NCBI GenBank assembly: GCA_040757295.1
Contig: JBFLXH010000005.1
Location: 7,014-71,013, forward strand
Direction of reading: 5' to 3'
DNA from: Bacillota bacterium
Lineage (GTDB): Bacteria; Bacillota; PH28-bin88
DNA length: 64,000 bases
Shown here piece after piece: positions 6,909 through 64,000 of the stretch; positions within the stretch are counted from its first letter, which is position 1, and the number at the start of each line of letters is the position of its first letter. The position numbers and the translations under genes were made by a program. The notes below the pieces were generated by a model. That model was not told the origin of the DNA. It worked only from the letters and a program-made list of their open reading frames with translations, and did not search any database.

Positions 6909-6910
6909 TA

Positions 6911-12405: not shown

Positions 12406-12415
12406 TAAAACTTCC

Positions 12416-12745: not shown

Positions 12746-12937
12746 TTTTTTCACCTCCTTTTTCCTGTTAACCATAGGATTACCTGCGGCTAAGCCTGTT
12801 ATACGTGGTCTTTGCTCCCTGAAAGCCGGCGGCCAACTTATTTGTTCTATTGCCTTTTATCCCTTCCCATGGTAGAATAAATGCTGTTAACTGTGGTTAA
12901 AAGATGTGAATCCTTTCCCAAAAGGAGGTGACCATTC

Positions 12938-13189
12938 TTGGCAAATATTAAATCCGCAGAGAAACGGGTTGAGATAAATCGCCGCAATGCCCTGCGCAAT
13001 GCTGCGATTAAATCCCAGGTTAAAACGGCTGTGAAGAAGTTCGAAGCCAACGTTAATGATGTAAACCTAGTCAATGCCGTCAAAAATATTGATAAGGCCG
13101 TCACGAAAGGCGTATTGCATAAAAATACCGCCGCCAACAAAAAATCTAAGCTACAAAAGAAATACAACGCCGTAGCAGGCTTGCAGTAA
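12938..13189 (+). CDS. rpsT: 30S ribosomal protein S20
   Basis: MANIKSAEKR ... S20 family. TTG start 6 nt after AAAGGAGGTGA. Confidence 0.9.
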   Translation: MANIKSAEKRVEINRRNALRNAAIKSQVKTAVKKFEANVNDVNLVNAVKNIDKAVTKGVLHKNTAANKKSKLQKKYNAVAGLQ

Positions 13190-13196
13190 AACAGTT

Positions 13197-13240
13197 AAGT
13201 CCCGGGTATGTTTCCAAACCAGGGACTTATTGTTTTTCTC
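13197..13240 (+). terminator. Bidirectional intrinsic terminator between rpsT (+) and holA (-)
   Basis: AAGTCCCGG ... CCAGGGACTT hairpin followed by ATTGTTTTTCTC. It overlaps the holA stop. Confidence 0.5.
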
Positions 13241-14213: not shown

Positions 14214-14427
14214 TTTTCCCGAGGTTTCCCATGGGAAAACCGGCAAACCTGAAACCTTAGCCCTGCTTTGACTATTTATTACCATTTCTTCACCACCTAC
14301 TTCGCTATAACAAGTTCTAGCCATCTTTAATAAGTCCTCTTTATCTTTAAGTGAATCCTGCATGAACAAAAACAGTTAAACAGATAATATGAAATGCTTG
14401 AATTATGATTTTGAAGGGAAAGCTTAC

Positions 14428-15483
14428 ATGACAGAACCGGTAAAAACCATTATCGGCCCACGCCGCAGTCCCAGGCTTTTTGGAGGAAGGGATCTGGGTA
14501 TTGACCTTGGCACAGCAACCACCCTGGTATTCGCAAAAGGCAGGGGCATCATCCTGCGGGAGCCCTCGGTAGTGGCTATTGATGTTCATACGAACCAGAT
14601 CGTAGCCATCGGGCAAAAAGCGTGGGCCATGATCGGCCGCACCCCCGGCCGCATTAGAGCAATTCGTCCTTTGCAAAATGGAGTAATAACCGATTTTGAA
14701 ACAACCAAACTGATGGTATCCTCATTTATAAAAAGATGTCTCCCTATTTCCTTAGGAAAACCGAAGATAGTAATCAGCGTTCCCTTCGGCAGCACCCAGG
14801 TAGAACGAAGGGCCGTGTTTGAGGCCGCCCGCCAAGGGGGAGGCAAGGAGGTTTTGTTAGTAGAAGAGCCCCTGGCTGCAGCTATCGGAGCAGGCCTGCC
14901 TGTAGCCGAAGCGGTAGGGAGCATGGTTGTTAATATCGGGGGAGGCACAACCGAGGTAGCAGTTATTGCCTTAGGGGGGATCGTAAAGGGTGTCTCTTTA
15001 CGAAGCGCTGGTGATACCCTAACGCAAAGCATCCAAGCTTACATGAGAAGAAACTACCGGCTGGAGATTGGGGAACCTACCGCTGAAGCCATTAAGATAG
15101 AAGAAGGCTACGCCTTCAACCCTCCTGCCGATAAAATTATCCCGATTAAGGGAATCTACCTGCCTACGGGGATGCCGAAAGCTGTTCATGTTAAATCTTC
15201 AGAAATCACGGCTGCAATGGAAGAACCGCTGGCCACTATTCTTGCCGGTATCAGGCGGGTATTTGAACAGGCCCCGCCCCAGTTGGCCTCCGACATTATT
15301 GACACTGGTATTACCCTCACTGGCGGCGGAGCACTCCTTAAGAATATCGATGGCTTAATTGCCAAACAACTGGGGCTGCCGGTACAGGTGGCCACGGAAC
15401 CTCAGGAATGCGTCGCCCTTGGTACAGGCCAAATCCTGCAGCAAACCGGGAACCTAAACCGGGTTGCACTTTACCGGCTGTAA
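14428..15483 (+). CDS. Actin-like rod-shape protein MreB/Mbl family
   Basis: LFGGRDLGIDLGTATTLVFAKGRGIILREPSVVAI is the MreB signature. The ATG at 14428 lies 6 nt after GAAGGGAAAG. Confidence 0.8.
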   Translation: MTEPVKTIIGPRRSPRLFGGRDLGIDLGTATTLVFAKGRGIILREPSVVAIDVHTNQIVAIGQKAWAMIGRTPGRIRAIRPLQNGVITDFETTKLMVSSFIKRCLPISLGKPKIVISVPFGSTQVERRAVFEAARQGGGKEVLLVEEPLAAAIGAGLPVAEAVGSMVVNIGGGTTEVAVIALGGIVKGVSLRSAGDTLTQSIQAYMRRNYRLEIGEPTAEAIKIEEGYAFNPPADKIIPIKGIYLPTGMPKAVHVKSSEITAAMEEPLATILAGIRRVFEQAPPQLASDIIDTGITLTGGGALLKNIDGLIAKQLGLPVQVATEPQECVALGTGQILQQTGNLNRVALYRL

Positions 15484-15586
15484 ACATTTACTCCGATCAT
15501 GGCATGACCGCACATAACCGCGATCTCCAGAATTTCCTGGGGAGGCAGCTTTTCCGTCTTACCCCAGCGGCCCAAGCGTCTATTGG

Positions 15587-16615
15587 CTATTGTCGCTTCC
15601 TTTTGGCAGCAAGGCGAATAGCCACCTGAAAAGCTTCTTTCGTGGCCAGTTCATTCGCCTGGCCTTTCCCTGCCAGCTCGAAACTGCTGCCGTGGGCCGG
15701 CGTAACTGCCACCAAAGGCAAACCGGCGCAAATGGTTACTGTCTTGCTAAACCCCAACAGTTTAGCGCCGATTTGGCCCTGATCGTGGTACATGGCCAAA
15801 ATCCCGTTTCCCTGCCTTCGGAGGTAGCGCAAAAATATAGTGTCAGACGGATAAGGACCGCTGGCAAAAATCCCGTTATTCTGAGCCTGGGCAATCACAG
15901 GAACGATTATTTCTTCTTCTTCCGTCCCGAATAGGCCTCCATCGCCGGCATGAGGGTTAAGAGCAGCTACAAGTATTCTTGGAGACTTCGTTCCATAAGA
16001 AGTTATGGTTTGAGCCAGCAACTGCAGGGCGTTTAATATGCTGTCTTGGGTGACATGATGAGCGACATCCTTTATGGCCACATGGGATGTTACCCTGCCC
16101 AGCCACAACCTGCCCATTTTATTTATCTCGCCAAAAACCGCGCCGGCTGGCATTTTCGCCAGATGGGCCAGATAGTGAAGCTCATCGGTAACATCATAAC
16201 CCCCTAGATGTAACGCTGCTTTTGTCAACGGGCCATAGACTATCCCATCAGCAACGCCGTTCTGCACCAGATTAACCCCCCTGGCCAAATCCTGACCCAT
16301 TGCCCGGCCGGTTTCTTCGGAGACTTGCCCAATGGCAAAATCCCCTGGAGCTAAATTATTTTGCTCCAGCACATAGACCTTTCCAGGCTGATGATGGATT
16401 TCTTTCTCGTTTTCACAGACTTGAAATTCAGGTCCCCGGCCGGCAACCTCAATTCCTTTTCTTACAATACGCTGGTCCCCCACAACAACAAAGCAAGCCC
16501 GCCGGCGGAGTCTTTCGACCGCTAAAGCTTTCGCGATCACTTCCGGGCCGATACCTGCCGCATCGCCTAGAATGACGGCCAGGGTAGGAAACTGTTTCTT
16601 TCTTTTGGAGTCCAT
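15587..16615 (-). CDS. PdxA-family NAD-dependent 4-hydroxythreonine-4-phosphate / D-threonate-4-phosphate dehydrogenase
   Basis: AVILGDAAGIGPEV, LNPHAGDGG and HDQGQI motifs. GAGGGGGG 8 nt before the ATG. Confidence 0.75.
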   Translation of the reverse strand: MDSKRKKQFPTLAVILGDAAGIGPEVIAKALAVERLRRRACFVVVGDQRIVRKGIEVAGRGPEFQVCENEKEIHHQPGKVYVLEQNNLAPGDFAIGQVSEETGRAMGQDLARGVNLVQNGVADGIVYGPLTKAALHLGGYDVTDELHYLAHLAKMPAGAVFGEINKMGRLWLGRVTSHVAIKDVAHHVTQDSILNALQLLAQTITSYGTKSPRILVAALNPHAGDGGLFGTEEEEIIVPVIAQAQNNGIFASGPYPSDTIFLRYLRRQGNGILAMYHDQGQIGAKLLGFSKTVTICAGLPLVAVTPAHGSSFELAGKGQANELATKEAFQVAIRLAAKRKRQ

Positions 16616-16749
16616 TGCTGGATCCCCCCTCAGATAGCAGCGTAACGAAAATATTATGTTAACTTAGGGTCTTGACATAATACCGCTGCTCTCATTCTTA
16701 AATTATTATTGGAATATTGATCTTGGTCGGAGCTGGCATACTAATGATA

Positions 16750-17763: not shown

Positions 17764-17861
17764 GGCAATTCCTCCGTTCCTTTGTTAGGTAACATGTCTA
17801 CTGTTAATATTATCCCGAGGCTTCGCCTAATAGCAAGCCGCAGTTATTCAACTGGGTCTTG

Positions 17862-17983
17862 GCTTCAGCGGGGGATTGCTTCCCCCGCTGAGCTTAGAGC
17901 CAGTTAATACAGTGGCGTAGCCGCTCTTATCCCGCCGCTTGGAGAAGCGGGGGTATTAGAGCGGGTAGCCATCTGTGATAAAA
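17862..17983. repeat. GC-rich palindromic repeat units shared with 39036-39455 (second repeat family)
   Basis: 17862-17935 is the reverse complement of 39368-39455 (CTTCAGCGGGGG ... CCCCCGCTGA(A)GCTTAGAGCCAGTTAATACA ... GCGTAGCCGCTCTTA). 17956-17983 matches the reverse complement of 39036-39063. Confidence 0.5.
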
Positions 17984-20736: not shown

Positions 20737-20913
20737 GCAAAACAAAACGCCTCTCCTATGACAAGAAGAGGCATGAAAACTTATCCTCCTCTTATCTCTC
20801 AGGAATAACCTGCAGGAATTGGCACCAATTCAAATAATCACGGCTATGCGGCCATCAATTCGAACGGTTGCCGGGCTTCATCGGGCCAGTCCCTCCACCT
20901 CTCTAGATAAGAG
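20737..20913 (-). ncRNA. SAM-I (S-box) riboswitch with intrinsic terminator, upstream of metY
   Basis: Minus strand reads CUCUUAUCUAGAGAGGUGGAGGGACUGGCCCGAUGAAGCCCGGCAACC ... GGUGCCAAUUCCUGCAGG ... GAGAGAUAAGAG, the canonical S-box core. It is followed by a GCCUCU ... AGAGGC hairpin + GUUUUGUUUUGC. Confidence 0.85.
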
Positions 20914-37695: not shown

Positions 37696-37965
37696 AAAAG
37701 AAAAACCTCCCGCCCCATGCCTTGGGACGGGAAGTTTTATTTCCCGCGTTACCACCCAAATTGGTAATAATAAGTAATCATTACTACCCTCTCAAGGTTT
37801 ATTAACGGCAACCAGCCGGCACAGGTTAAAAATTCACCTGCACAGCTCCCGGGCGAGTTCAGCGGGCTTCCTGCTGTTTTTCACCATCCAACAGCTCTCT
37901 GATAAAGCTGACCCAGCCTAATGCTCCCGTTCACTGCTTTTCCCATTAGTTGATTAATAATTAAC
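37696..37965 (-). ncRNA. T-box riboswitch leader (Leu, specifier CUC region) with intrinsic terminator, upstream of leuS
   Basis: The T-box sequence AAUUUGGGUGGUAACGCGG is the reverse complement of 37746-37763. It is followed by the terminator CUUCCCGUCCC ... GGGGCGGGAGG + U-run. Stem I contains AGAGA and GAACUCGCC. Confidence 0.7.
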
Positions 37966-39035: not shown

Positions 39036-39460
39036 CCTATTTATCACAGATGGCTACCCGCTCTAAGGAACGGGGACACACCGCTTACAAATCGCTCTTG
39101 CCGCAGAAGCACTCTAAAGTTAAGGTTACAGGGGACATGTCTACCGCATTCATCCTTAACGCGGAATGTCCCCAACGCGTTCGCTTCTTTAAAGCGGCGG
39201 GATATGCTCGGCATGAAATTCGCTTTGAGGCCACATTTAATCAAGGAATAATTGGTGGCCTCGCTCATTATATGCTCGGCGAGGAATAAAATTTGATTAC
39301 AGTCAATGAAGCCGAGCATGAAATTCGCTTTGAGGCCACATTTAATCAAGGAATAATTGGTGGCCTCGCTCATTTTAAGAGCGGCTACGCCATTGTATTA
39401 ACTGGCTCTAAGCTTCAGCGGGGGTAGCAATCCCCCGCTGAAGCTTAGAGCCAGTTGAAG
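39036..39460. repeat. Repeat-dense non-coding region: two tandem 63-bp direct repeats (39206-39268, 39311-39373) each with an 8-bp-stem hairpin, plus a 21-bp-arm perfect palindrome (39402-39450)
   Basis: GAGGCCAC-N20-GTGGCCTC units, and GGCTCTAAGCTTCAGCGGGGG-tagcaat-CCCCCGCTGAAGCTTAGAGCC. Homologous units occur at 17862-17983 and 55025-55125. ORF 39044-39373 is an artefact of the tandem repeat. Confidence 0.55.
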
Positions 39461-40572: not shown

Positions 40573-41835
40573 TTATTGTCTTATATGACCATCCCCATAA
40601 ACAATGTATTTTAGACTTGTCAAGGTTTCCAATCCCATCGGCCCTCTGGCATGAAGCTTTTGGGTGCTAATTCCTATTTCCGCCCCTAATCCATACTCTC
40701 CTCCGTCGGTAAACCGGGTCGAGGCATTTACGTAAACCGCGGCGGCATCCACTTCCTGCAGAAACCTGCGGGCCCGCTGGTAGTCACTAGTTACAATGGC
40801 CTCTGAATGCTTGCTGCCATAGCGGTTGATATGGTCAAGAGCATCCTCCATGCTATCCACTACCTTAACCGCCAAAATCAGAGCCAGGTATTCGGTTTCC
40901 CAATCCTCTTCCGTTGCGGGCTTGGCTTCAGGCAACAATTCCTGGGTAAACGGACAGCCCCGGATTTCTACTCCTAACTCTATTAAGCGTCGTCCCAGGG
41001 CCGGGACTATTTGTTCAGCCTCGGCCCTGTGCACCAGGAGGGTTTCAACCGCATTACATACCCCGGGCCGCTGGGTTTTGGCGTTGATCACGATTTCAGC
41101 CGCCATTTGCGGATTAGCGCTTTCGTCAATATAAATATGGCAGTTGCCGACCCCGGTTTCGATCACCGGAACCGTAGAATTGGTTACCACTGCCCGGATC
41201 AACCCGGCTCCACCCCTGGGAATTAATACATCCAAGTAATCCCGCATCTGCATCATGATTGTAATAGCTTCTCTTTCAGCAGTTTCAATTAACTGGAAGC
41301 TTCCTAAAGGCAGTTTGCTGTCGGCAAGAGTCTGATTTAAAGCCTCTACAATAGCCAAATTTGACTGCAAAGCTTCAGAGCCGCCTCTTAAAATGACGGC
41401 ATTTCCCGTTTTTAAAGAGAGGGCTACTGCATCAACAGTTACATTAGGCCTTGCCTCGTAAATCATGCCGACTACCCCTAAGGGCACCCTGATTTGGCCG
41501 ATTTGCAGACCGTTAGGCCGTGTCCACATGCGGATTACCTCGCCAATAGGATCAGGCAAAAGGGCTACCTCCCGCAAAGCATTAGCCATCCCTTTTACTC
41601 GCTGGCTATTGAGCAGTAAACGGTCAAGCAAGGCTCCGGAAATGCCTTTATCGCGGGCACTTTTCATGTCGATTTGGTTAGCCGCCAAGATGTCTTTTTC
41701 CCGCTCTTCGATGGCTGTTGCCATAGCAAGCAAGGCTTTGTTTTTGGCTGCCGTCGACAACGAGCCTAATTTTCTGGCTGCCTCCCTAGCCAGGCGGCCT
41801 TGGGCAAATAGCCTTTCATGCAGTTCGTCGTTCAC
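40573..41835 (-). CDS. proA: Gamma-glutamyl phosphate reductase ProA
   Basis: Aldehyde-dehydrogenase-like ProA family. GTG start 5 nt after GGGGGGG. Confidence 0.85.
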   Translation of the reverse strand: MNDELHERLFAQGRLAREAARKLGSLSTAAKNKALLAMATAIEEREKDILAANQIDMKSARDKGISGALLDRLLLNSQRVKGMANALREVALLPDPIGEVIRMWTRPNGLQIGQIRVPLGVVGMIYEARPNVTVDAVALSLKTGNAVILRGGSEALQSNLAIVEALNQTLADSKLPLGSFQLIETAEREAITIMMQMRDYLDVLIPRGGAGLIRAVVTNSTVPVIETGVGNCHIYIDESANPQMAAEIVINAKTQRPGVCNAVETLLVHRAEAEQIVPALGRRLIELGVEIRGCPFTQELLPEAKPATEEDWETEYLALILAVKVVDSMEDALDHINRYGSKHSEAIVTSDYQRARRFLQEVDAAAVYVNASTRFTDGGEYGLGAEIGISTQKLHARGPMGLETLTSLKYIVYGDGHIRQ

Positions 41836-53848: not shown

Positions 53849-54985
53849 CTAGAAAACAATCTTTTGCCGTCTTAAATTGATGTTCAGGACCAACCCTAAG
53901 GCCAACATATTTGCCAGCATGCTGCTGCCCCCAGAGCTAAAAAGAGGCAATGGCAGTCCTGTAATCGGCATTAAACCAATGGTCATCCCCACGTTTTCCA
54001 CAATATGAAAAAAAATCATAGACGTCACGCCGGTAACTAACAGGGCTCCAAAAAGGTCCTTTGCTTCAAAAGCGATCCGGATGCACCGGTAAATTAAAAC
54101 AAAGTACAAGATCAGGAGAGAAGCGGCTCCAATAAAGCCAAGCTCTTCTCCTACCACAGAAAAAATAAAGTCGGTGTGGTGCTCCGGCAGAAAGTTTAAC
54201 TGTACCTGGGAACCCTTGGTCAGGCCTTGGCCCCATAAACCCCCGGAACCAATAGCCACCTGGGACTGGATAATATTATAACCGGCGCCCCGCCCGCCAT
54301 AACCATCGTTATAAGGATTAAGAAAAACGACCAAACGCATTAATTGATAACCTTCCAGCGGCACGGGCAGACCGAAACGGAAATGTCCTACCAGCACGCC
54401 TATACATGCAAGCAAGCCAAAAAGGATAATACCGGTCAGAAGCCTGGGATTAGCTCCGCCAATGAACAACATCCCAAAAAGAATGGCCACAAAAACCAAG
54501 GAAGTTCCGAGATCGGGCTGAGCCATAATTAAAAGCATTGGCGGGATGAAAAAGGCAAAACAGGGAATAAGATCCCACAAACGATCCAGCTTTCCCTGTC
54601 TTTTAACCAGGAATTGAGCAAAGGAAATAATTATAAATACCTTGGCAAATTCGGAAGGCTGAATCTTTAACGGCCCATACCCCAGCCACCTTGTGGCGCC
54701 CTTGGCGTCATCACCCAGCACTAAGACTGCCAGCAGCATCAAGAGGTTAAGAGCGTAAATATGCCAGCCCATCCTGGTCAGATGGCTGTAGTTTATTGTT
54801 AAAACCGCTATAAGGGCTGCAAAACCCACGCCAATCCACATCAGGTGTTTACGAAAATAATAGGTGGGATCCCCAGGGATGACACTGGCAGAAGCGCTGT
54901 AAAGCACCACTGCGCTCATGGACAGTATCGCCAGAAGGGATAAAATTAGGGTATAGTCAATATTCTGCAAGAGTCTCCGATCCAT
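53849..54985 (-). CDS. SEDS-family peptidoglycan glycosyltransferase (RodA/FtsW/SpoVE)
   Basis: 378 aa, 10-TM SEDS profile. GGAGGAGGG 5 nt before the ATG. Confidence 0.8.
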   Translation of the reverse strand: MDRRLLQNIDYTLILSLLAILSMSAVVLYSASASVIPGDPTYYFRKHLMWIGVGFAALIAVLTINYSHLTRMGWHIYALNLLMLLAVLVLGDDAKGATRWLGYGPLKIQPSEFAKVFIIISFAQFLVKRQGKLDRLWDLIPCFAFFIPPMLLIMAQPDLGTSLVFVAILFGMLFIGGANPRLLTGIILFGLLACIGVLVGHFRFGLPVPLEGYQLMRLVVFLNPYNDGYGGRGAGYNIIQSQVAIGSGGLWGQGLTKGSQVQLNFLPEHHTDFIFSVVGEELGFIGAASLLILYFVLIYRCIRIAFEAKDLFGALLVTGVTSMIFFHIVENVGMTIGLMPITGLPLPLFSSGGSSMLANMLALGLVLNINLRRQKIVF

Positions 54986-55024
54986 TTTATCCCTCCTCCA
55001 ATTTATCTTATAATGAGCAAGGCC

Positions 55025-55125
55025 ACTAATTATTCATTGATTTGCCGTGGCCTCAAAGCGAATTTCATACTCGGCTTCATTATGATAATGCAATTTTATC
55101 CCTTGCCGAGTATATCATAATTATT
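55025..55125. repeat. Inverted copy of the 63-bp hairpin repeat seen at 39206-39373
   Basis: The reverse complement reads AATGAAGCCGAGTATGAAATTCGCTTTGAGGCCAC ... AATAATTAGTGGCCTT. Confidence 0.45.
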
Positions 55126-55259
55126 ATAGATCACTCCTCCCCAGCTTAGCTACTGACAAAATTACGGCAGGATCAAGCTTTGGTTAAAACAAAACGTTCA
55201 CTGAAGTAACACTTTCAAAAAAAAGAGGGGCCCGAAGGCCCCCGGCGTAGAAAGAAAGA

Positions 55260-56687
55260 TTACCTGCCGTAAGTGCTCTTTTCGTGATCTACCACTATTC
55301 CCCGCAGGATTCCGTCTGCTGCATTGCCGTAGGCAGCTTTCGCCCAGACATAGAAGATCAATCCCAGTAAGGACCAGCCCAAGACCATAGCCCATTCATA
55401 GGGCCACACCAAGGCAGCAGGAGAAACCCCCGGCAGGTACAGCAGCACAAAAAAGCCGCTTAAAACTACTGCAATAGTGCCTACCAGTTTTCCTTGAGGA
55501 ACTAAGAAAGGCCTGGGCATTTGGGGTTCTTTAGACCGCAAGGCTAAAAATGAAGCAGCTACCAGGACCCAAGCAACTACTACCGCAAAGCCGCCTGCGT
55601 CCACCAGCCAAACCAGCATTTTCCTGCCCAGCAAAGGGGCAAGGGTAGACAGGATGCCAATCAGAATAATGGCATTATGGGGGGTTTTATATTTTGGGTG
55701 CAGCGCGCCCAGAAATTCAGGCAGCATTTTGGCCCGGGCCATAGCGTAAAGCGCCCGGCTACCGCCGATGTAAAAGGCGTTCCAGCTGGTCATAATCCCG
55801 CAAATGCCACCCAGGATCAGCAGTTTAGCCGCTACCGGGCTTTTGAACACGGCAGCCATGGCGTCGGCTGTAGCCAGGGAAGCAAAATTCCTGGCCTCAA
55901 AGGGCAAGGCCCGGCTGACACCGAAAATAATAAACATGTACCACGCTACCGCCATTAAAACAGACGCCAATAGGATTAAGCCAATGCTGCGATAAGGAAT
56001 GTTTATTTCTTCCGCCGCCTGGGGAATGACATCAAAACCCACAAACATGAAGGGAGTCATGACCATAACAGCAACGATGCCCTTCCACCCATCCACAAAG
56101 AAGGGCTGCATGGCCTCTGTGCTGCCGGTAAAAAGGCTGCCGGTGATAAACATGACACCAATGATGGCCAGCCCAGCGGTGAGAGTAGCCTGGAAAACCG
56201 CCGCCGGCCTGATGCCAAGGTAATTAACCACCGCAACCAGCACGGATCCCAGCATTCCGACCAGAACCCAAGTAGCATAGACATCCCAACCGGCTATAGT
56301 CCATAAGTAGCCCACTTTATAACCCGGAACAATATACTCCACAACGGTTGGCAGAGCAACCGCCTCGAAGGCCACAACAGATATATATCCAAGGATTATT
56401 GCCCAAGTACAAATAAACGAGGCTCCTACACCCAACCCTCGCCAACTAAAAAACAGTTCGCCGCCGGCTTTAGGAATTGCTGTTGTTAACTCCGCATAGG
56501 CGAGGCCTATAAAAATAACCATAATACCGCCTAATAAAAAGGCCAACATCCCGCCAAGAGATCCTCCGGTATTAGCCCATTCCCCTGCCAGGACTACCCA
56601 GCCCCAACCGATCATTGCGCCAAAGGCGAGCACCAGCACATCCCACCGGCCCAACACCCTCACCAGGCTATTGTTTTCACTTGACAA
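55260..56687 (-). CDS. APC-family amino acid/polyamine permease
   Basis: 475 aa, 12 TM, APC signature region. TTG start 7 nt after AGGAGGG. Confidence 0.85.
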   Translation of the reverse strand: MSSENNSLVRVLGRWDVLVLAFGAMIGWGWVVLAGEWANTGGSLGGMLAFLLGGIMVIFIGLAYAELTTAIPKAGGELFFSWRGLGVGASFICTWAIILGYISVVAFEAVALPTVVEYIVPGYKVGYLWTIAGWDVYATWVLVGMLGSVLVAVVNYLGIRPAAVFQATLTAGLAIIGVMFITGSLFTGSTEAMQPFFVDGWKGIVAVMVMTPFMFVGFDVIPQAAEEINIPYRSIGLILLASVLMAVAWYMFIIFGVSRALPFEARNFASLATADAMAAVFKSPVAAKLLILGGICGIMTSWNAFYIGGSRALYAMARAKMLPEFLGALHPKYKTPHNAIILIGILSTLAPLLGRKMLVWLVDAGGFAVVVAWVLVAASFLALRSKEPQMPRPFLVPQGKLVGTIAVVLSGFFVLLYLPGVSPAALVWPYEWAMVLGWSLLGLIFYVWAKAAYGNAADGILRGIVVDHEKSTYGR

Positions 56688-56810
56688 CTATTTTCCCTCC
56701 TTTTTTTCTCTTTGCTACCATCCCAAATTATTTGGAAAACTACTCCTTTGCTTGCATACCACCCCCAAACCGCTTTTTGAATGGCAACTGCTGTTGTAAC
56801 AAACCTTAAG

Positions 56811-56828
56811 ATGCAAAATTGATGCCAA
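56811..56828 (-). promoter_or_regulatory. Candidate sigma-54 (-24/-12) promoter TTGGCAT-N5-TTGCAT upstream of the permease
   Basis: GG and GC elements are spaced 10 nt apart as in TGGCAC-N5-TTGCW. One mismatch (T for C) in the -24 box. Confidence 0.45.
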
Positions 56829-57005
56829 TACAGAAAATTTTTTATTCTCTGTATTTACTTAATTGGCTAAAATTATTAAATTCTTAATGCCTGAATAACA
56901 TGAATAATGCAAAATAACCTCAAACTTTCCAGCTCTTTTGGGACACCCCTATTGAATAATGAGCCGTAAAAAATGCAAAAATACCGACTTAAATGCGTAT
57001 TTGCA

Positions 57006-57051
57006 TTTATTTTTTGGAAAAAGGCGGCCTTGAACCCCAGGGCTCAAGGCC
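57006..57051 (-). terminator. Intrinsic terminator after the aldehyde:ferredoxin oxidoreductase gene
   Basis: GGCCUUGAGCCCUGGGGUUCAAGGCC followed by GCCUUUUUUCC on the minus strand. Confidence 0.6.
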
Positions 57052-57080
57052 AAATTTATTGCAAGAGGATGGTAGATTGC

Positions 57081-58838
57081 TTAGTTCGCCACGGGAATCC
57101 CTTCAGGGGTCCAACCCCGTAACCGGTAATAATCAGCCAGCATCAAATCGAATTCGGCTTCAGTCAGGTGACTGCGATCAGGCGCTATTGATTGGCGGAA
57201 CAGGCGGGCAGGCAACCGGTCGTCAAGAGCGCTAAGTCCTTGATCAAGGTTAAACTGCCGGGACATGGCTACAATCCGGTTGGCAACCTGACGCAGTTCA
57301 TCGGGGGTAAACTCCCACCCACAGGTAGCCCTTATTAGGGAAACTAAAGATTCCCAGGGGATCAGGTCCCGGAAAAATACGCAGAGGATCATGGTATTAA
57401 AGATGGTAAGGCGGTTTTCAAACTCGATAAACAGTTGGGCTTTCCCGTCAATCTGGGCCGGGTCGATGATTCCCGCCAGTTCAGGTTTATAGAAAGTTGC
57501 CCGCAGGTGGCAGGCACCCCTGGCTGAAGTGGCATAAGCTAACCCCATGCCTTTTAATAAGCGGGGATCATAACCGGCTGGCTCCATCCCTTTGACATGG
57601 ACAGCCAGGTCCTCAAGCCCCAGCTGGGCTGCTGCTGCCTTAATACCGCCTGAAAGAATGGCCCCTAAACCTTGCCTGCCTGAGATTTGCAATATAAGAT
57701 CAGCCGCTCCTTTGGCATCGCCGTATAAAGGCCCTTCAGTTAACCGGCCCTGCTCTCTCGCCTCCATCACCAGCCCGATTAGGTTGCCGCAGGTGATGGT
57801 ATCAACCCCCAACCGGTCACAGAGGTCATTTAATTTTAGGATTTCGTCCAGTCGATCAATTTCGCATAGGCCGCCGAAAGCGTAAATTGTTTCATACTCA
57901 GGCCCCTCTACCGTCAGGCCTTGATACTCCCCTTCTCTTACTTTCGTAAGTTTGCCGCAGGCCAGCATGCAGTGGGGGCAGGCCTTTGCCTTGACGTCAA
58001 AATTATTTAATAAGGCATCACCGTTAATTTTTTCCCAGTGATCGCTCCTGCCTTTGGACCAGTAGCGGGCAGGGAAAACTCCTGCTTTATTCAGAATAGA
58101 GACCATCACCGGAGTGCCATAGGTACGGTAATTTTTGGCCCCTGGGTCATCTTTGGCTTTTTCCCGCAGGCTCATGACCAATTCTTTTAGCAATTCCGGA
58201 TCGGCAAGCTGGCAGGCGGCCTGGCCATGGAAAACCACGGCCTTTAATTTTTTAGACCCCATTACAGCCCCCATGCCGGTACGGCCGGCAGAACGCCAGT
58301 AATTGTTCTCCAAACAGGCAAACCGCACCAGGTTTTCCCCGGCAGGGCCGATGACCAAAGCCTCGGCCCCCTCCTGTCCAACTTCTGCGATCACCGCATC
58401 TTCGGTAAAGTAAGTATCCTTTCCCCACAGGTGACCGGCATCATGGACCTTGACTTCTCTATCGCTGATTTCCAGATAAACTGGCTTGTCGCTTTTGCCT
58501 TCAATTACAATGGCATCATATCCGGTAGACTTCATGGCAGCAGCCACTCGACCGCCGGAAGAGGCCTCCCCAAAGCCGCCCGTTAAAGGGGATTTGCTGA
58601 AAACGCTGTAACGGCTGGCGCCAGGCATGATGGTCCCAGCGGCTGGACCAGTCACAAAAATCACGGGGTTCCCCGGACCCAGGGGATCCGTTCCAGGCGG
58701 CACCAGGCGGTTCAAGAGGTAGGTTGCTAACCCGCGGCCGCCCAGATATTTTTTTAACAACTCTTCCTCCAATACCTCAACAAAATGATCCCCGGTTATC
58801 AAGTTAATACGTAGCATTTTACCAAAAAAACCAAACAT
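57081..58838 (-). CDS. Tungsten-containing aldehyde:ferredoxin oxidoreductase (AOR family)
   Basis: MFGFFGKMLRINLITG ... AOR N-terminal domain and a full-length ~585-aa catalytic domain. ATG at 58836-58838 lies 6 nt after AGGAGGGG. The ORF-track start at 58922 is an upstream in-frame extension. Confidence 0.85.
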   Translation of the reverse strand: MFGFFGKMLRINLITGDHFVEVLEEELLKKYLGGRGLATYLLNRLVPPGTDPLGPGNPVIFVTGPAAGTIMPGASRYSVFSKSPLTGGFGEASSGGRVAAAMKSTGYDAIVIEGKSDKPVYLEISDREVKVHDAGHLWGKDTYFTEDAVIAEVGQEGAEALVIGPAGENLVRFACLENNYWRSAGRTGMGAVMGSKKLKAVVFHGQAACQLADPELLKELVMSLREKAKDDPGAKNYRTYGTPVMVSILNKAGVFPARYWSKGRSDHWEKINGDALLNNFDVKAKACPHCMLACGKLTKVREGEYQGLTVEGPEYETIYAFGGLCEIDRLDEILKLNDLCDRLGVDTITCGNLIGLVMEAREQGRLTEGPLYGDAKGAADLILQISGRQGLGAILSGGIKAAAAQLGLEDLAVHVKGMEPAGYDPRLLKGMGLAYATSARGACHLRATFYKPELAGIIDPAQIDGKAQLFIEFENRLTIFNTMILCVFFRDLIPWESLVSLIRATCGWEFTPDELRQVANRIVAMSRQFNLDQGLSALDDRLPARLFRQSIAPDRSHLTEAEFDLMLADYYRLRGWTPEGIPVAN

Positions 58839-58921
58839 CTTTTTCCCCTCCTCGAACTCTCCTCCAACCATCCTAAGCAAGCACAAACATGCTTTTTGGC
58901 CAAGGGGCGCCGCGGAACCCA

Positions 58922-60268
58922 TTAATTCAGAGAAGCAGCCTCCAAGGCCCGCTCCACTACGTCAAGCCCCATAGACAGCTGTTCCTCAGTGATAACCAGG
59001 GGAACCAGGAAACGGACCACATTGCTGAATACACCGGCGCTTAAGGCCAAAACGCCGTTTTTAACGCAGGAGTTGATGACCTTTGAGGTTGCTTCCTTAG
59101 CGGGCTCTTTGGTCTGGCGGTCTTTTACCAGTTCAATGGCAACCATGGCTCCTAGCCCCCGGACATCGCCAATCAAAGGGAATTTATCCTGCATGGCCTT
59201 CAATCGCTGAACCAAAATTTCTCCCAGTTGGTTAGCCCTGTTAGCAAGGGCATCCCGTTGAAGCAGCTCGATTGACTTCAAGGCAGCTACACAGGATACT
59301 GGGTTGCCGCCAAAGGTGCCTCCAATTTCGCCCGGGTTCGCCGCATCCATTATCTCGGCCCGGCCTACAACAGCGCTGACAGGCATCCCGGCAGCCAATG
59401 ACTTGGAAAGAGTCATCATGTCAGGCTCAATTCCAAAGTGTTCAACAGCAAACATCGTCCCGGTACGGCCAAAGCCCGATTGGACCTCATCGGCAATCAG
59501 CAAAATACCGTACTTCTCACATATTGCCTTGAGACCCTGAAGATACTCCGGCGGCGGGACGATGAAGCCGCCCTCGCCCTGGACGGGCTCAGCGATTATT
59601 GCAGCAACGTTTTCGTGGGGGCATTCAGACAGGAAAAACCGCTCCAGGTAACTAACGCACTGCAGGTCACATCCCGGATACTTTTGCCCAAAAACACAAC
59701 GGTAGCAATAAGCTGATGGAATTTTGTGAACCTCGGGGGCAAAAGGGCCAAAGCCAAATTTATAGGGCTTAACCTTGCTTGTCAGGGTCATTGCCATCAG
59801 AGTCCGGCCGTGGAATGCACATTCCAACGCAATGATCCCCGTCCGCTTGGTATACTTTCTGGCCAGCTTGACAGCATTCTCAACTGCCTCTGCCCCGGAA
59901 TTGGCCAACATCACCTTTTTAGCAAAGGAGCCTGGGGTTATCTGGGTTAATTTTTCCGCCAGCCGCACATAGGGCTCGTACATGGCCACATGAAAACAGG
60001 TATGGAGATACTTTTCCGCCTGTTCCTTAACAGCGTTTACAATTTCCTGGGGACTGTGGCCTACATTTACAACGCCGATACCAGCCGCAAAATCAATAAA
60101 AACATTACCGTCTACATCCCGTACCAGGGCCCCTTTAGCCTCTTCGGCAAAAATCGGGGCGGTATTCGCCGGTCCCCGGGATACAAATTGCTCTCTTAAT
60201 GCCAGCAGTTCCTTTGATTTGGGACCCGGGATTTCAGTAAGCAACTGAGGCTTCCACTCAAAGGCCAT
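58922..60268 (-). CDS. Class-III PLP aminotransferase (4-aminobutyrate/omega-amino acid aminotransferase-like)
   Basis: GabT-like fold (... FIDFAAGIGVVNVGH ... DEVQSGFGRTG ...). AGGAGG 8 nt before the ATG. Confidence 0.8.
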   Translation of the reverse strand: MAFEWKPQLLTEIPGPKSKELLALREQFVSRGPANTAPIFAEEAKGALVRDVDGNVFIDFAAGIGVVNVGHSPQEIVNAVKEQAEKYLHTCFHVAMYEPYVRLAEKLTQITPGSFAKKVMLANSGAEAVENAVKLARKYTKRTGIIALECAFHGRTLMAMTLTSKVKPYKFGFGPFAPEVHKIPSAYCYRCVFGQKYPGCDLQCVSYLERFFLSECPHENVAAIIAEPVQGEGGFIVPPPEYLQGLKAICEKYGILLIADEVQSGFGRTGTMFAVEHFGIEPDMMTLSKSLAAGMPVSAVVGRAEIMDAANPGEIGGTFGGNPVSCVAALKSIELLQRDALANRANQLGEILVQRLKAMQDKFPLIGDVRGLGAMVAIELVKDRQTKEPAKEATSKVINSCVKNGVLALSAGVFSNVVRFLVPLVITEEQLSMGLDVVERALEAASLN

Positions 60269-60306
60269 TTTAATAACCTCCTTGCATTTTGTGTTACCAT
60301 TCCTTT

Positions 60307-60323
60307 ATGCAAGAAGTGTGCCA
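60307..60323 (-). promoter_or_regulatory. Consensus sigma-54 promoter TGGCAC-N5-TTGCAT, 4 nt after the activator stop and ~40 nt before the aminotransferase start
   Basis: The minus strand reads aaTGGCACacttcTTGCATaaagg, a perfect match to the -24 GG / -12 GC consensus. Confidence 0.65.
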
Positions 60324-60326
60324 TTC

Positions 60327-61814
60327 TTATTGCCCGCTGCAGGAGGTTTTCTTGTTGGGCTTGCGGCGCCTGATGGCCAAATATTTATTTATTTTCCGTA
60401 CAACTGTGGATTGGTTGATTCCTAAAACTTCCGCTATCCGGTAGGTATTCCCTAACTGGTGATAAGCCTTGGCAATCAGCTGTTTTTCCAGCTCTTCTAT
60501 GGCCCTGCTCAAGGTGCAAAGCCCCCGGACAATTACCACTGGCTCTTTTCGACCGGCTGCCCTTGCCAAAAAAAGGTCCGGCAAATGGCCAACAGCAATT
60601 TCCTTCCGGTCACTGGTAACCACCAGACGCTCAATAACATTCTCTAACTCCCGCACATTACCAGGCCAATCATAATTCATAAAAAGGTCCAACACCTCGG
60701 GGCTCAATTCCTTGGTGATGCCGTATTTCTCCTTAAAGCGGCTTAAACACCCCTCAATTAAAAGAGGAATGTCTTCTCTCCGATACCTAAGCGGAGGAAC
60801 GGTGATGGGCACTACATTGAGCCGGTAGTATAGGTCTTCCCGGAACCCACCGGTAGAAACCATTCTTTGGATATCCTGATTGGTGGCAGCCAGAATCCGC
60901 ACATTGACAGGCCGTTCTTTATAGCCCCCTACCCTGACAACCCGTTTCTCCTGCAAGACTTGCAAGATTTTAGCCTGGAGTCCCAAAGGCAGTTCGGCTA
61001 TCTCATCTAAAAACAGGGTGCCTTGATCGGCCATCTCAATGGTACCCTTTTTACCTTCTTTTCTGGCGCCGGTAAAAGCTCCCGGTTCATAGCCGAACAG
61101 CTCGGACTCCAACAGATTGGCAGGGATGGCTGCGCAATTAATACTGATAAATGGTCCTCGGCACCTGGGACTGTTTTGGTGTATGTGGGCTGCCAGTAAG
61201 CCCTTACCAACTCCCGTTTCGCCTAGTAGCAGGATAGTCGAGTCAACTTTGGCTACCCGTTTGGCTAGGTCTACTACCTCCCGCATGCAGGGACTCTCGG
61301 CGACCATTTCATATCCAGCTTGCTGAAGGCTCTTTTGGTTTAATTGGGCGATCTGCTGCCGGTAGCTGTCTGCTAAGGCCTCCGTTTCGGCCAGTCTTTC
61401 CTTGAGCACATTGAGTTCGGTGATATCCCTGGAGTTGATCACAATTCTTTCAATGACCCCGTCCTCGTTAAATACGGGGTTTCCGGTAACGACTACCTGC
61501 CGGCCGCTGCGGGTATGCTGCAAGATGGTTACCCGCCGCTTTTCTTTTAAGACCACCTCTGTACAGGAAGGGAAAAAAAGACCTGCTTTAACCAGTTCAT
61601 CAACCGGTTTTCCAACCAATTCTTCGGGCTTAACGCCATAAAGCCGTTCACAAGCAGCACTTACCCTAAGAGTAATTCTGTTTCCATCGGTAAGGTAGAT
61701 TTCGTCGAAAGAAGATTCGAGCATGGCCTCTAACTCTTTATTGACCTGCTGCAATTTTTTTAACTCTTCCTGCAATGCCAAAACCTGTTGCAAGAGGTCT
61801 GGCGAACCTGACAT
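60327..61814 (-). CDS. Sigma-54-dependent transcriptional activator with an N-terminal PAS sensor domain (PAS-AAA+-Fis HTH)
   Basis: GETGVGKGLLAAHIH (Walker A), GAFTGA motif (EPGAFTGA), and a C-terminal HTH. Confidence 0.85.
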   Translation of the reverse strand: MSGSPDLLQQVLALQEELKKLQQVNKELEAMLESSFDEIYLTDGNRITLRVSAACERLYGVKPEELVGKPVDELVKAGLFFPSCTEVVLKEKRRVTILQHTRSGRQVVVTGNPVFNEDGVIERIVINSRDITELNVLKERLAETEALADSYRQQIAQLNQKSLQQAGYEMVAESPCMREVVDLAKRVAKVDSTILLLGETGVGKGLLAAHIHQNSPRCRGPFISINCAAIPANLLESELFGYEPGAFTGARKEGKKGTIEMADQGTLFLDEIAELPLGLQAKILQVLQEKRVVRVGGYKERPVNVRILAATNQDIQRMVSTGGFREDLYYRLNVVPITVPPLRYRREDIPLLIEGCLSRFKEKYGITKELSPEVLDLFMNYDWPGNVRELENVIERLVVTSDRKEIAVGHLPDLFLARAAGRKEPVVIVRGLCTLSRAIEELEKQLIAKAYHQLGNTYRIAEVLGINQSTVVRKINKYLAIRRRKPNKKTSCSGQ

Positions 61815-61943
61815 GAAAACCTACCCCCAGTCAATGGAATAATAACGCCACTCAACCCTCTTAAATGCAACTATCCATTTGCTTCATGCAATCTTGCATT
61901 TACGAAAGTTCCTGATTAGACCCCCTGACGGGAAAATCTCCGC

Positions 61944-64000
61944 TTAGGCAAGCTTTTTTGGCAGCGGAAACACATTAAGCCTTACATGCTTTTTAGCGAT
62001 AATAAGAGCGTCAGCCAACCTGACTCCCTGTCCCTCCGGCAACACGATTAATGGGTTGATATCCAGCTCCGCCAGGTCATCTTTTAGGTCAACAGCCAGG
62101 TGGGATACGGTAATCAGGACTTCCGCCAAGGCAGCAATATCCCCCTTTCCCCGCCCCCTAAAACCAGCCATTAAGGGATACCCTTTGATTTCCATAATCA
62201 TTTCCATTGCATCCCTTTTGGAGAGGGGCGCCGGCCGCATGGATACATCTTTAAATACTTCTACAAATATCCCTCCCAATCCAAACATGACCACCGGCCC
62301 AAACACGGGATCGTTATTGACCCCGATGATGGCCTCGACGCCTTTGCCAATCATTTCCTGCACCAGGACGCCCCAGATTTCCGCATCAGGGTTATACTCC
62401 TTGGCATTCGCAACGATGGTGCGGAAAGCTTCTCGCACCTCCTGGGGAGAGAAAATATTTAATATGACCCCTTTAGCTTCCGTCTTGTGCAAAATTTGGG
62501 GAGATTCTATCTTCATGACCACCGGGTAGCCTATTTCCTGGGCTAAGGCCACAGCGTCTTCCTCGTTTGTAGCCAGGCCCTCACCGGGCATGGGCAGCCC
62601 ATAATACTTTAAAACTTTTTTCGCCTGGTGCTCAGACAGGGTGCCTCCGTCAGCCAAGAGCTCCCGGACTCTTTGCAGTTCTTGTTCGCTGAGTACCTGA
62701 GGCCTTATTTGCGCCTGAAGGGAACTATTCTTGTAGGCTTGGGCAAAGGAAGCATAGTCCACCAAGGCCTTAATTGCCCGCACCCCCCTGCCTGGAGCCT
62801 TAAAATAAGGAACGCCGCCTTGTTTAAGAATCTGAAAGCAACGCTGATTGGTCACATCCCCAGCTGTCCAGACAATGACCACCGGTTTTGTGCTGGAGCC
62901 CATCACATCAACAATATCCCTGGCTACCTGTTCACCCGCCGAGCCGGTAATCATGGTCTGCACAATCATTAGGCAGTCCACGTTGGGATCAGCCAGGACA
63001 ACCTCAACACACCGGCGGAAACCGGTGGGGTCGTTAATTACCTGGGCTGTAATATCAATGGGGTTCCTGGCTGAACCATAGGAAGGGATAAATTCTTTAA
63101 TCTGGTCATAGCTTTCCTCCAAGAGGTCCGGCAGGTCCAAGTCCAGGTCCGCGCAGGTGTCTGCTGCAATAATCCCCGCCCCGCCAGAAGTGCTGATTAC
63201 ACAAAGGCGATTTCCCTGAGGAAGTTTGCCGGGGGCAAAGACTTTTGCCATATCAAGCAGCTCTTCGATATCGTTCACCCGGACAATCCCTTTTTGCCGG
63301 CAGACAGCCTGGAATGCTGCGTCAGAGCCGGTCAGGGCTGCCGTATGGGAGGAAGCAGCGCGGCTGCCGATAGCCGAACGCCCCGCCTTTAAAAGAACCA
63401 AAGGTTTTCCCAAGGCCAAAGCCCGTTCTGCCACGGCCTTAAACTGCTCTGAATCGGGCACTCCCTCCAAATAACCGAGGATAACCCTGGTTGAGTCATC
63501 CTCAACCATAAATTCCATGGCATCTAAAGTAGTCAAATCTGCCTCATTTCCGGTGTTCACGATATATGTAAAGCCAATACCTGCTTCCTGGGCCTGATTA
63601 AAGGTGGAATAGCCCAGGGCCCCGCTTTGGGTAGCAAACCCCACCGGGCCACAGAGAAGGGCTCCGTTTTCCAAAGCCGCGCTAAAACTTGCCGTAATAC
63701 TGTCTGCCAGGTTGACCATCCCCTGGCAGTTAGGGCCGCAGACCCTAATCCCGCTGGCTCTGGCCAGTTCCTTGATCTGTTTTTGCAGACGGGCGCCCTC
63801 AGCACCTGTCTCTGCAAACCCAGAACTGAAGATAATTACGTTTTTGATTCCCTTTTCCGCACACTCTTCCAGAGCAGGCAAAACCCGGTGGTAGGCCACC
63901 GCAAAAAGAGCCAGGTCCGGTTGGCCGGGGATAGCCTTAATCGACGGATAGCAGGCCACGCCGTAAATTTCGCTGTACTTAGGATTGACCAGGAAAATAT
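61944..64000 (-). CDS. ADP-forming acyl/acetyl-CoA synthetase (fused alpha/beta, NDP-forming), 5'-truncated by the window edge
   Basis: The in-frame continuation to position 64000 encodes the N-terminal CoA-binding region (... IFLVNPKYSEIYGVACYPSIKAIPGQPDLA ...). Succinyl-CoA-synthetase-like and ATP-grasp domains follow. Confidence 0.8.
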   Translation of the reverse strand, partial: IFLVNPKYSEIYGVACYPSIKAIPGQPDLALFAVAYHRVLPALEECAEKGIKNVIIFSSGFAETGAEGARLQKQIKELARASGIRVCGPNCQGMVNLADSITASFSAALENGALLCGPVGFATQSGALGYSTFNQAQEAGIGFTYIVNTGNEADLTTLDAMEFMVEDDSTRVILGYLEGVPDSEQFKAVAERALALGKPLVLLKAGRSAIGSRAASSHTAALTGSDAAFQAVCRQKGIVRVNDIEELLDMAKVFAPGKLPQGNRLCVISTSGGAGIIAADTCADLDLDLPDLLEESYDQIKEFIPSYGSARNPIDITAQVINDPTGFRRCVEVVLADPNVDCLMIVQTMITGSAGEQVARDIVDVMGSSTKPVVIVWTAGDVTNQRCFQILKQGGVPYFKAPGRGVRAIKALVDYASFAQAYKNSSLQAQIRPQVLSEQELQRVRELLADGGTLSEHQAKKVLKYYGLPMPGEGLATNEEDAVALAQEIGYPVVMKIESPQILHKTEAKGVILNIFSPQEVREAFRTIVANAKEYNPDAEIWGVLVQEMIGKGVEAIIGVNNDPVFGPVVMFGLGGIFVEVFKDVSMRPAPLSKRDAMEMIMEIKGYPLMAGFRGRGKGDIAALAEVLITVSHLAVDLKDDLAELDINPLIVLPEGQGVRLADALIIAKKHVRLNVFPLPKKLA

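Follow-up and report, generated by a model that had tools for sequence, protein, structure and literature searches.

A stretch of 64,000 nucleotides from a Bacillota bacterium (GenBank assembly GCA_040757295.1, contig JBFLXH010000005.1, positions 7,014 to 71,013; hereafter the window) carries near its end an aminotransferase gene followed by a gene for an aldehyde:ferredoxin oxidoreductase (AOR), both situated between the genes for a sigma-54-dependent activator and an amino-acid permease. The question that this locus raises is which compound such a module would take up and degrade, and what an AOR would do at the step that E. coli leaves to NAD(P)-dependent aldehyde dehydrogenases. Drawing on sequence and genomic context for all functional assignments in the module, we consider it probable that the locus encodes sigma-54-switched uptake and catabolism of 4-aminobutyrate (GABA) or 5-aminovalerate, in which a ferredoxin-linked AOR replaces the NAD(P)-dependent semialdehyde dehydrogenase. 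GABA appears to be the most likely substrate and 5-aminovalerate a possible one.

In the scheme that we propose, the APC-family permease would import the omega-amino acid and the aminotransferase would pass its amino group to 2-oxoglutarate, giving glutamate and succinate (or glutarate) semialdehyde. The AOR would oxidise the semialdehyde to the free dicarboxylic acid in place of the semialdehyde dehydrogenase GabD, reducing ferredoxin, and a glutamate dehydrogenase, whose gene lies inside the module in other genomes and would lie elsewhere in this one, would recycle the glutamate. A PAS-domain activator would bind ATGC-N6-GCAT palindromes and drive two sigma-54 promoters, P1 serving the aminotransferase-AOR operon and P2 serving the permease. 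The substrate, the direction of the AOR reaction, its ferredoxin acceptor and tungsten, the inducer and the sites that serve P1 are predicted in this scheme.

All genes between 55260 and 64000 lie on the minus strand, and in the direction of transcription the order is acyl-CoA synthetase, activator, P1, aminotransferase, AOR, terminator, P2, APC permease and second terminator. The module is an island in a core chromosomal region, since rodA and a conserved housekeeping block follow it on the 3' side. Its features are as follows (L-numbers such as L028 label comparison loci; L110 is Desulfoscipio gibsoniae, L025 is D. kuznetsovii and L027 is C. pertinax).

60327-61814, minus strand: PAS-AAA+-HTH sigma-54 enhancer-binding protein (the activator), from Pfam domains and motifs
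60308-60323, minus strand: P1, sigma-54 -24/-12 promoter TGGCAC-N5-TTGCA, 0 mismatches
58922-60268, minus strand: GabT-type class-III aminotransferase (predicted omega-amino acid:2-oxoglutarate), from TIGR00700, PDB matches and active-site residues
59657-59707, minus strand: four-cysteine motif C-Y-R-C-x8-C-x3-C in the aminotransferase, aa 188-204
57081-58838, minus strand: AOR, single-subunit type, 585 aa, domains AFOR_N and AFOR_C
57025-57052, minus strand: intrinsic terminator 3' of the AOR gene, 12-bp stem, -20.9 kcal/mol, U run
56905-57006: putative upstream activator region of P2, a palindrome and two conserved blocks
56812-56827, minus strand: P2, sigma-54 -24/-12 promoter TGGCAT-N5-TTGCA, one mismatch, conserved in L028
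55260-56687, minus strand: APC-family amino-acid permease with a TTG start codon, from AA_permease_2 and AA_permease
55226-55243, minus strand: intrinsic terminator 3' of the permease gene, GGGGGCC-TTCG-GGCCCCT then U8, -15.1 kcal/mol

An earlier reading of the same DNA, made from the sequence only, had described this gene order, both promoters and the terminator, all of which are present with slightly corrected coordinates. It had placed P1 at 60307-60323, 4 nt past the activator stop, and P2 at 56811-56828; P1 starts at 60323, 3 nt past the TAA, and P2 is one nucleotide shorter at either end. The AOR start had been put at 58922 and is most likely the ATG at 58838, which has the ribosome-binding site GAGGAGGGG ahead of it and gives a protein of 585 aa, against 576-589 aa in homologues. 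This leaves a spacer of 83 nt, devoid of a terminator, between the aminotransferase and AOR genes.

A GabT-type aminotransferase and a single-subunit AOR

The aminotransferase belongs to Pfam family Aminotran_3 (441 bits) and passed the curated GABA transaminase model TIGR00700 with 571.4 bits against a cut-off of 506.65, while missing the narrower PRK06918 (606.3 against 676). The best 11 matches of a PDB search were all GABA transaminases. In a pairwise alignment with E. coli GabT (46% identity) the equivalents of I50, G111, R141, E211, D239, V241, Q242, K268, T297 and R398 are kept; of this active-site list, we take K268 to be the lysine that holds pyridoxal phosphate (PLP), R141 and R398 to be the arginines for the substrate carboxylate, and E211 to be the glutamate switch. 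The class-III omega-aminotransferase recognised earlier can therefore be narrowed to the GabT type. Because both carboxylate-binding arginines are conserved, the substrate would be an omega-amino acid (GABA or 5-aminovalerate). Of the candidates previously put forward (GABA, beta-alanine, a diamine or an aromatic amine), GABA is the likeliest, and a diamine or an aromatic amine is disfavoured by the same arginines and thus unlikely. The nearest relatives include, besides the comparison loci L028, L112 and L113, a protein of 90% aminotransferase identity from a metagenome-assembled genome (MAG) of the Syntrophomonadaceae. No protein on record is identical to the AOR.

A loop of the protein (aa 188-204) carries the four-cysteine motif C-Y-R-C-x8-C-x3-C, which is conserved across nearly the whole anaerobe clade, including 23 of 23 AOR-adjacent aminotransferases. 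E. coli GabT lacks the motif, as do the five solved GabT/PuuE structures for which an alignment was listed and four of five GabD-adjacent aminotransferases. It may form a zinc or iron-sulfur site; its position differs from what we presume to be that of the 2Fe-2S site in pig GABA transaminase.

Among solved structures, the AOR scored highest against A. mobile WorL (9mqx, 434 bits), followed by P. furiosus AOR (1aor, 422 bits), FOR (368 bits), WOR5 (180 bits) and BamB (147 bits). It aligns to 1aor at Cys288, Cys291, Cys295 and Cys494, Glu313 and His448 (CPHCMLAC, the C of NTMILC, PEYE and ACH), which in P. furiosus numbering we take to be the four cysteines of the 4Fe-4S cluster and the catalytic pair Glu313/His448. 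The second pterin-binding motif departs from D-x-x-G-L-C: P. furiosus AOR has D-S-A-G-L-C, whereas this subclade has N-T-Q/M-I-L-C, with N-T-M-I-L-C at aa 481-486 of the window protein (57381-57398). Since the N-x-x-I-L-C form predominates in the best 120 AOR homologues, a few of which keep the Asp, we read it as a subclade signature and not as decay. No member of the subclade with N-T-Q/M-I-L-C is known to have been characterised.

No gene for a ferredoxin-like or flavin subunit adjoins the AOR gene, which places the enzyme in the single-subunit type, like P. furiosus AOR. A tungsten cofactor and a ferredoxin acceptor are suggested by the family only, and among the window open reading frames (ORFs) that were scanned (outside 1-16,700) there was no tungsten/molybdenum-cofactor gene. 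With the tungsten AOR family (P. furiosus AOR/FOR, A. mobile WorL and A. aromaticum AorB; PMC12096430, PMC12318220) the protein shares the two-domain fold, the Fe-S cysteines and the catalytic Glu/His. Unlike that family generally, it is genetically tied to an aminotransferase, a link that speaks for a dedicated catabolic substrate and not for general detoxification.

The next-closest AOR homologues, those of D. kuznetsovii (L025) and C. pertinax (L027), adjoin genes for fumarate-reductase-type flavoproteins and di- or tricarboxylate transporters, and in C. pertinax fumarase genes too. These neighbourhoods give a weak hint that the clade handles aldehydes related to C4-dicarboxylates.

Recurrence and loss of the aminotransferase-AOR pair

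A metagenome scan with the aminotransferase yielded 80 loci at 55-90% identity, 72 of them with at least 400 nt of downstream sequence. An AOR gene follows immediately downstream on the same strand in 21 of these 72, the gap usually being shorter than 400 nt, and an AOR adjoins the aminotransferase on one side or the other in 23 loci; a dehydrogenase resembling E. coli GabD adjoins it in no more than 5 of the 80. Grouped into lineages, the aminotransferases with an adjacent AOR number 20 at 90% identity and 7 at 70%. For at least 25 of the best 120 aminotransferase homologues, the contig size matches that of one of the best 120 AOR homologues. Scanning a genome collection with the AOR returned only relatives of 57% identity or less, few of which had an aminotransferase nearby. 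The pair, whose co-occurrence in other genomes the sequence-only reading had proposed to map, recurs in many independent lineages, often with the same types of permease and activator, and is not a coincidence.

Around the closest AOR homologue (66% identity, L026), the order is SSF transporter, aminotransferase, aminotransferase, AOR and PAS activator; in the cultured Desulfoscipio gibsoniae DSM 7213 (CP003273, 4682577-4697881), whose module is more complete, it is APC permease, ThiS-like protein, aminotransferase, AOR, glutamate dehydrogenase and PAS activator. Glutamate dehydrogenase genes also flank the pair in L030, L035 and L044, which fits recycling of the 2-oxoglutarate/glutamate couple. 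Homologues of the window permease (59-66% identity) lie less than 1 kb from the aminotransferase in L032, L034, L035, L038, L040, L042 and L051, and D. gibsoniae has a permease of the same Pfam type within that distance. A Thermodesulfobacteriota MAG shows the order Fe-ADH, aminotransferase, ABC transporter, AOR. Related aminotransferases in L064 and L107 have a similar activator ahead and a GabD-like dehydrogenase after them, the pattern that would be expected for a non-orthologous replacement.

Locus L111 has genes for an arginase-family protein, a putrescine aminotransferase (model score 726 bits, cut-off 612), a ferredoxin, a second AOR type and ThiS, and continues with SSF, a transaminase, a GABA aminotransferase, AOR and activator. 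In L026, which is cut at its start, only the end of the putrescine-type aminotransferase remains, and the genes after it follow this order. Both read as a putative route from putrescine through 4-aminobutanal, GABA and succinic semialdehyde to succinate, with an AOR at both aldehyde steps. We regard it as evenly balanced whether strict anaerobes possess such a widespread and hitherto undescribed AOR-dependent degradation of omega-amino acids and polyamines under a PAS/sigma-54 regulon of ATGC-N6-GCAT sites. In that wider scheme, a GabT-type aminotransferase would work with a single-subunit AOR and a putrescine-type aminotransferase with a ferredoxin-like subunit and the second AOR type, so that ferredoxin-reducing steps would replace both NAD(P)-dependent aldehyde dehydrogenase steps of the putrescine-GABA-succinate route.

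The putrescine-type aminotransferase recurs as part of a second unit, together with a polyferredoxin-like small subunit, a different AOR (37-42% identical to the window AOR) and often a ThiS/MoaD-like protein. This unit lies at 1-4279 of L111 and 1-2797 of L026, has similar counterparts in L034, L040, L056 and L101, and is often found beside the GabT-AOR unit. Its composition suggests AOR-based oxidation of 4-aminobutanal.

Three close relatives of the window locus (L028, L112 and L113, at 84-87% DNA identity) have the order TAXI-TRAP transporter, synthetase, activator, P1, aminotransferase. L028 has no AOR gene, and L112 and L113 have neither AOR nor P2 nor permease, the aminotransferase running straight into rodA. 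The deletion, of about 1.7 kb, spans the whole AOR gene, and its junction is identical in L028 (9345-9440), L112 (8483-8580) and L113 (2968-3065): the first ~47 nt of the aminotransferase-AOR spacer run directly into the final ~45 nt of the AOR gene, after which come the terminator and the palindrome region. As the same junction is found in each relative, we take the window to be the ancestral complete form and the relatives to descend from a single deletion.

A clean loss of the AOR with aminotransferase, activator and P1 retained is in line with another explanation, namely that the AOR is a broad-range scavenger of reactive semialdehyde and not an obligatory step, the main flux being carried by some other dehydrogenase. 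P. thermopropionicum, whose aminotransferase homologue has no adjacent AOR, also fits it, and according to a 2025 review, AOR sensu stricto enzymes often seem to be detoxifying and have wide substrate ranges (PMC12096430). We nevertheless consider this explanation quite unlikely. The tight same-strand pairing extends over 20 lineages and outnumbers pairing with a GabD-like dehydrogenase by about 4:1, and none of the AOR-containing modules examined has an aldehyde dehydrogenase gene. The window module has none either; the only Aldedh-family gene found in the window (40573-41835) adjoins a kinase-type gene and resembles proA, a gene of proline synthesis. Moreover, L112 and L113 lost the permease as well as the AOR, which suggests that the whole module is decaying there.

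Sigma-54 promoters and a candidate activator-binding palindrome

The activator has the Pfam domains Sigma54_activat (231 bits), PAS_9, AAA_lid_14 and HTH_50, and its Walker A (GETGVGKG), GAFTGA loop and Walker B (LFLDEI) motifs are intact. Of the NCBIfam models PrdR came out best, but its 425 bits fall short of the cut-off of 795 and the protein is not a PrdR equivalog; the cut-offs of all other NCBIfam equivalogs (NifA, AtoC etc.) were missed as well.

P1 (TGGCAC-ACTTC-TTGCA) is separated by 39 nt from the aminotransferase ATG and has a conserved counterpart, TGGCATGCTTCTTGCA, in L028; P2 is TGGCAT-CAATT-TTGCA. The two have 0 and 1 mismatches, respectively, to the consensus TGGCAC-N5-TTGCW. 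Both are intergenic and on the coding strand, and they are the only two matches to TGGCAY-N5-TTGCA in the 64-kb window, where shuffled sequences gave an expectation of 0.20. Sigma-54 promoter-like sites also lie just upstream of many aminotransferase homologues.

The terminator at 57025-57052, conserved in L028 and L112, is separated from P2 by an AT-rich stretch of 200 nt. This stretch contains the palindrome ATGCAAATACGCAT (56993-57006), which L028 and L112 also retain, at a distance of 166-180 nt upstream of P2, together with two conserved TTTTGCATT blocks at about 56968-56981 and 56905-56917. In comparison with L028, the palindrome and both TTTTGCATT blocks are kept amid otherwise diverged DNA. 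Across the homologous loci, windows 30-400 nt upstream of sigma-54 promoters contained 22 ATGC-N6-GCAT sites in 16 of 43 windows, against 0.32 expected from dinucleotide-preserving shuffles (shuffle maximum 2); downstream windows had one site among 46. In the 64-kb window there are only two exact copies, the one upstream of P2 and one upstream of the activator gene, within this feature:

61865-61899: two ATGC-N6-GCAT-type palindromes 21 bp apart, upstream of the activator gene; 61886-61899 exact, 61865-61878 with one mismatch

The pair at 61865-61899 is not conserved in L028 or L112, and its role is uncertain. The sequence-only reading had called for upstream activator sequences at both promoters and expected them inside the 3' end of the activator gene. 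Such a candidate is present at P2, none lies within 400 nt of P1, and 60324-61814 contains no site within one mismatch of the palindrome. Activation of P1 from distant sites, 1.55 kb upstream or 3.3 kb downstream, would be possible for this class of activator.

As to other signals, the 129-nt intergenic region between synthetase and activator (61815-61943) has no -24/-12 site and no convincing sigma-70 match that could serve as a promoter of the activator gene. Rfam returned nothing at E up to 1 in 54500-64000, including the 124-nt untranslated region of P2, that would indicate a riboswitch or leader.

In D. gibsoniae, a -24/-12-like site, TGGCAT-TATA-TTGCT, upstream of the permease gene (L110 5095-5125), with a spacer one base below the canonical length, overlaps an ATGC-N6-GCAT palindrome. 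For the glutamate dehydrogenase gene of that locus, the promoter (10623) is canonical and a palindrome precedes it by 98 nt.

Sigma-54 control of related genes has precedents in Bacillota. In B. thuringiensis, gabT is induced by GABA and succinic semialdehyde by way of GabR, a PAS/sigma-54 activator (PMC4279683). The gab cluster of that species (PMC4279683, PMC4428206) resembles the present one in that a PAS-AAA+-HTH activator gene adjoins a GabT-type gene with a TGGCA-N-TTGCA promoter, in the binding of the activator to repeats near the promoter (here predicted) and in its catabolic logic. The likeness of the two activators is one of domain architecture only. The systems differ as follows: B. 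thuringiensis has gabD, whereas here there is none and an AOR follows the aminotransferase in the same operon; the permease has a sigma-54 promoter of its own here; the predicted binding motif is a 14-bp ATGC-N6-GCAT palindrome here and a 21-bp repeat there; and no palindrome lies beside P1, unlike the B. thuringiensis sites near the promoter. In clostridia, AorR and sigma-54 likewise control an aor gene, but this gene stands alone with its own promoter and serves acid-to-aldehyde reduction in acetogens (PMC6615313), while the aor gene of the window comes second in an aminotransferase operon; in its text, PMC6615313 makes no mention of GABA or aminotransferases.

Substrate, neighbouring synthetase and other features of the window

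GABA is favoured as the substrate because the aminotransferase passed TIGR00700, because a putrescine aminotransferase-AOR unit stands next door in L111, and because of the GabR precedent of B. thuringiensis. The same mechanism would work with 5-aminovalerate, the C5 compound that arises when proline is reduced or lysine/cadaverine is broken down: the aminotransferase would form glutarate semialdehyde and the AOR would convert it to glutarate, which the synthetase or, in other genomes, a CoA-transferase would then activate for glutaryl-CoA dehydrogenase. L111 offers an argument for this, for there a sigma-54 promoter with the identical palindrome ATGCGTATTTGCAT precedes two genes beside the aminotransferase-AOR-activator unit, one for a glutaryl-CoA dehydrogenase (503 bits with the Acd model, whose cut-off is 470) and one for a carboxyltransferase. 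An acid-activating gene is also a recurrent neighbour of the aminotransferase, being a synthetase in the window, L028, L105 and L112 and a pair of CoA-transferase genes in the Desulfoscipio-type loci L032, L034, L040, L042 and L110, and the source annotation of one homologue includes 5-aminovalerate transaminase. E. coli GabT/GabD process C5 compounds too (PMC6265302), and P. furiosus FOR binds glutarate and was proposed to oxidise glutaric semialdehyde (PMC12096430). On the other side, the glutaryl-CoA dehydrogenase neighbour was found in one locus only, the curated model that was passed is that of GABA transaminase, the putrescine unit next door would yield GABA, and B. thuringiensis uses GABA. 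On balance, 5-aminovalerate seems to us a serious alternative, though rather unlikely to be the physiological substrate.

Several observations weigh against our preferred reading, that of GABA uptake and catabolism with an AOR in place of GabD. Around two thirds of the aminotransferase relatives lack an AOR gene next to them, and the closest AOR homologues, in D. kuznetsovii and C. pertinax, do not adjoin an aminotransferase. The AOR is dispensable in L028, L112 and L113, which keep the activator, P1 and the aminotransferase. Sequence does not separate GabT enzymes from 5-aminovalerate transaminases, nor a preference for GABA from one for beta-alanine, and a glutaryl-CoA dehydrogenase operon lies next door in L111. 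In the window and in L028, no palindrome occurs within 400 nt upstream of P1; those closest to it lie ~1.55 kb upstream and ~3.3 kb downstream. Lastly, among the scanned ORFs of the window there was no gene for glutamate dehydrogenase, ferredoxin, tungstate transport or uptake, or rpoN, and no RpoN box was found in any frame of the window.

The preferred reading shares its chemistry with the E. coli routes through GabT-GabD and PatA-PatD, which handle GABA, putrescine, cadaverine and 5-aminovalerate: an omega-amine is transaminated to an aldehyde that is oxidised to the acid (PMC6265302). The aminotransferase has the identical active-site set to E. coli GabT, and L111 contains both the putrescine- and the GABA-aminotransferase steps. 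E. coli uses NAD(P)-dependent aldehyde dehydrogenases, whereas AORs, which as a family are ferredoxin-linked, would act here; regulation would be by sigma-54 and its activator here and is by sigma-S/CsiR-GlaR in E. coli.

Already known, then, are control of gabT by sigma-54/GabR, control of aor by sigma-54/AorR, the GabT-GabD and PatA-PatD routes, and the oxidation of amino-acid-derived aldehydes by AORs in P. furiosus and A. aromaticum. A full-text literature search, with subscription-only papers outside its reach, found no paper that links transamination of GABA or of a semialdehyde precursor to an AOR, that places an AOR at the GabD step or that describes the aminotransferase-AOR operon. 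Bacterial AORs were described in 2025 as mainly detoxification enzymes "with additional, still unclear functions" (PMC12096430). The GabT-AOR operon predicts a specific AOR substrate, succinate or glutarate semialdehyde, and with it a testable physiological role for a large, uncharacterised bacterial AOR clade, for which Desulfoscipio gibsoniae is a cultured carrier. Because the acid/aldehyde couple has a very low potential, ferredoxin can be reduced, and hydrogen formation or energy conservation can follow; a ferredoxin-reducing AOR step would suit syntrophic and sulfate-reducing Bacillota. If the proposal is true, it would give this clade its first defined physiological substrates and make the anaerobic breakdown of GABA, 5-aminovalerate and putrescine dependent on how much tungsten is available in sediments, digesters and guts. 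It would also add a candidate activator-binding motif to the few characterised sigma-54 regulons in Bacillota.

The remaining gene of the region adjoins the activator gene upstream, as had been stated before:

61944-64000, minus strand: ADP-forming acyl-CoA synthetase, fused alpha/beta ACD type, from Pfam domains; 5'-truncated by the window end

Its domains are CoA_binding_2, Succ_CoA_lig, Ligase_CoA_2 and ATP-grasp_5, and its frame is open to the window end at 64000, with about 50 N-terminal residues missing. All NCBIfam equivalog cut-offs were missed, including that of 4-hydroxybutyrate-CoA ligase (525 bits against 1300), for which the protein can be rejected.

Of the fermentative route proposed by the sequence-only reading, the unit of uptake, transamination and AOR oxidation under sigma-54 found support, from comparative genomics only, and the final step, ATP formation by this ADP-forming enzyme as part of the same module, was not supported. 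In its favour, archaeal ACD enzymes can run in the ATP-forming direction, and the synthetase gene is adjacent not only in the window but also in L028, L112 and L105. Yet the AOR yields a free acid and no thioester that the synthetase could turn into ATP, so that no substrate-level phosphorylation would arise from the AOR step, and a synthetase acting on the product would consume ATP. Most aminotransferase-AOR loci lack the synthetase. In the three close relatives, it follows TAXI-TRAP genes (an NMT1_3 binding protein with a fused DctQM-like permease; DctM), the whole lying at 252-6111 of L028 and 290-5528 of L112, and the part of the synthetase gene inside the window has no -24/-12 site with one mismatch or fewer, the region upstream of it being beyond the window end. 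An ATP-forming end of the route is therefore highly improbable. The TAXI-TRAP genes and the synthetase look like a separate unit for uptake and activation of organic acids, and we treat the synthetase as a neighbour and not as an established member of the module. It may conceivably activate succinate or glutarate downstream and spend ATP in doing so.

Elsewhere in the window, a repeat element of ~85-95 nt with a perfect 25-nt inverted repeat (AACTGGCTCTAAGCTTCAGCGGGGG...) was found at 17846-17938 on the minus strand and 39376-39459 on the plus strand. The same repeat is inserted upstream of the activator gene in L028 (6326-6419); it has no Rfam match and looks like a REP- or MITE-like mobile palindrome. 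On the minus strand, there are a 6S RNA (6223-6402), a SAM riboswitch upstream of a PLP enzyme of Cys/Met metabolism (20789-20913) and a T-box leader upstream of leuS (37720-37943). Between about 26000 and 30000, the G+C content dips to 0.41 from about 0.50 elsewhere, and because of this dip the stretch, which covers the cbiM/cbiQ/ABC genes of an ECF-type cobalt or nickel transporter, may have been acquired horizontally.

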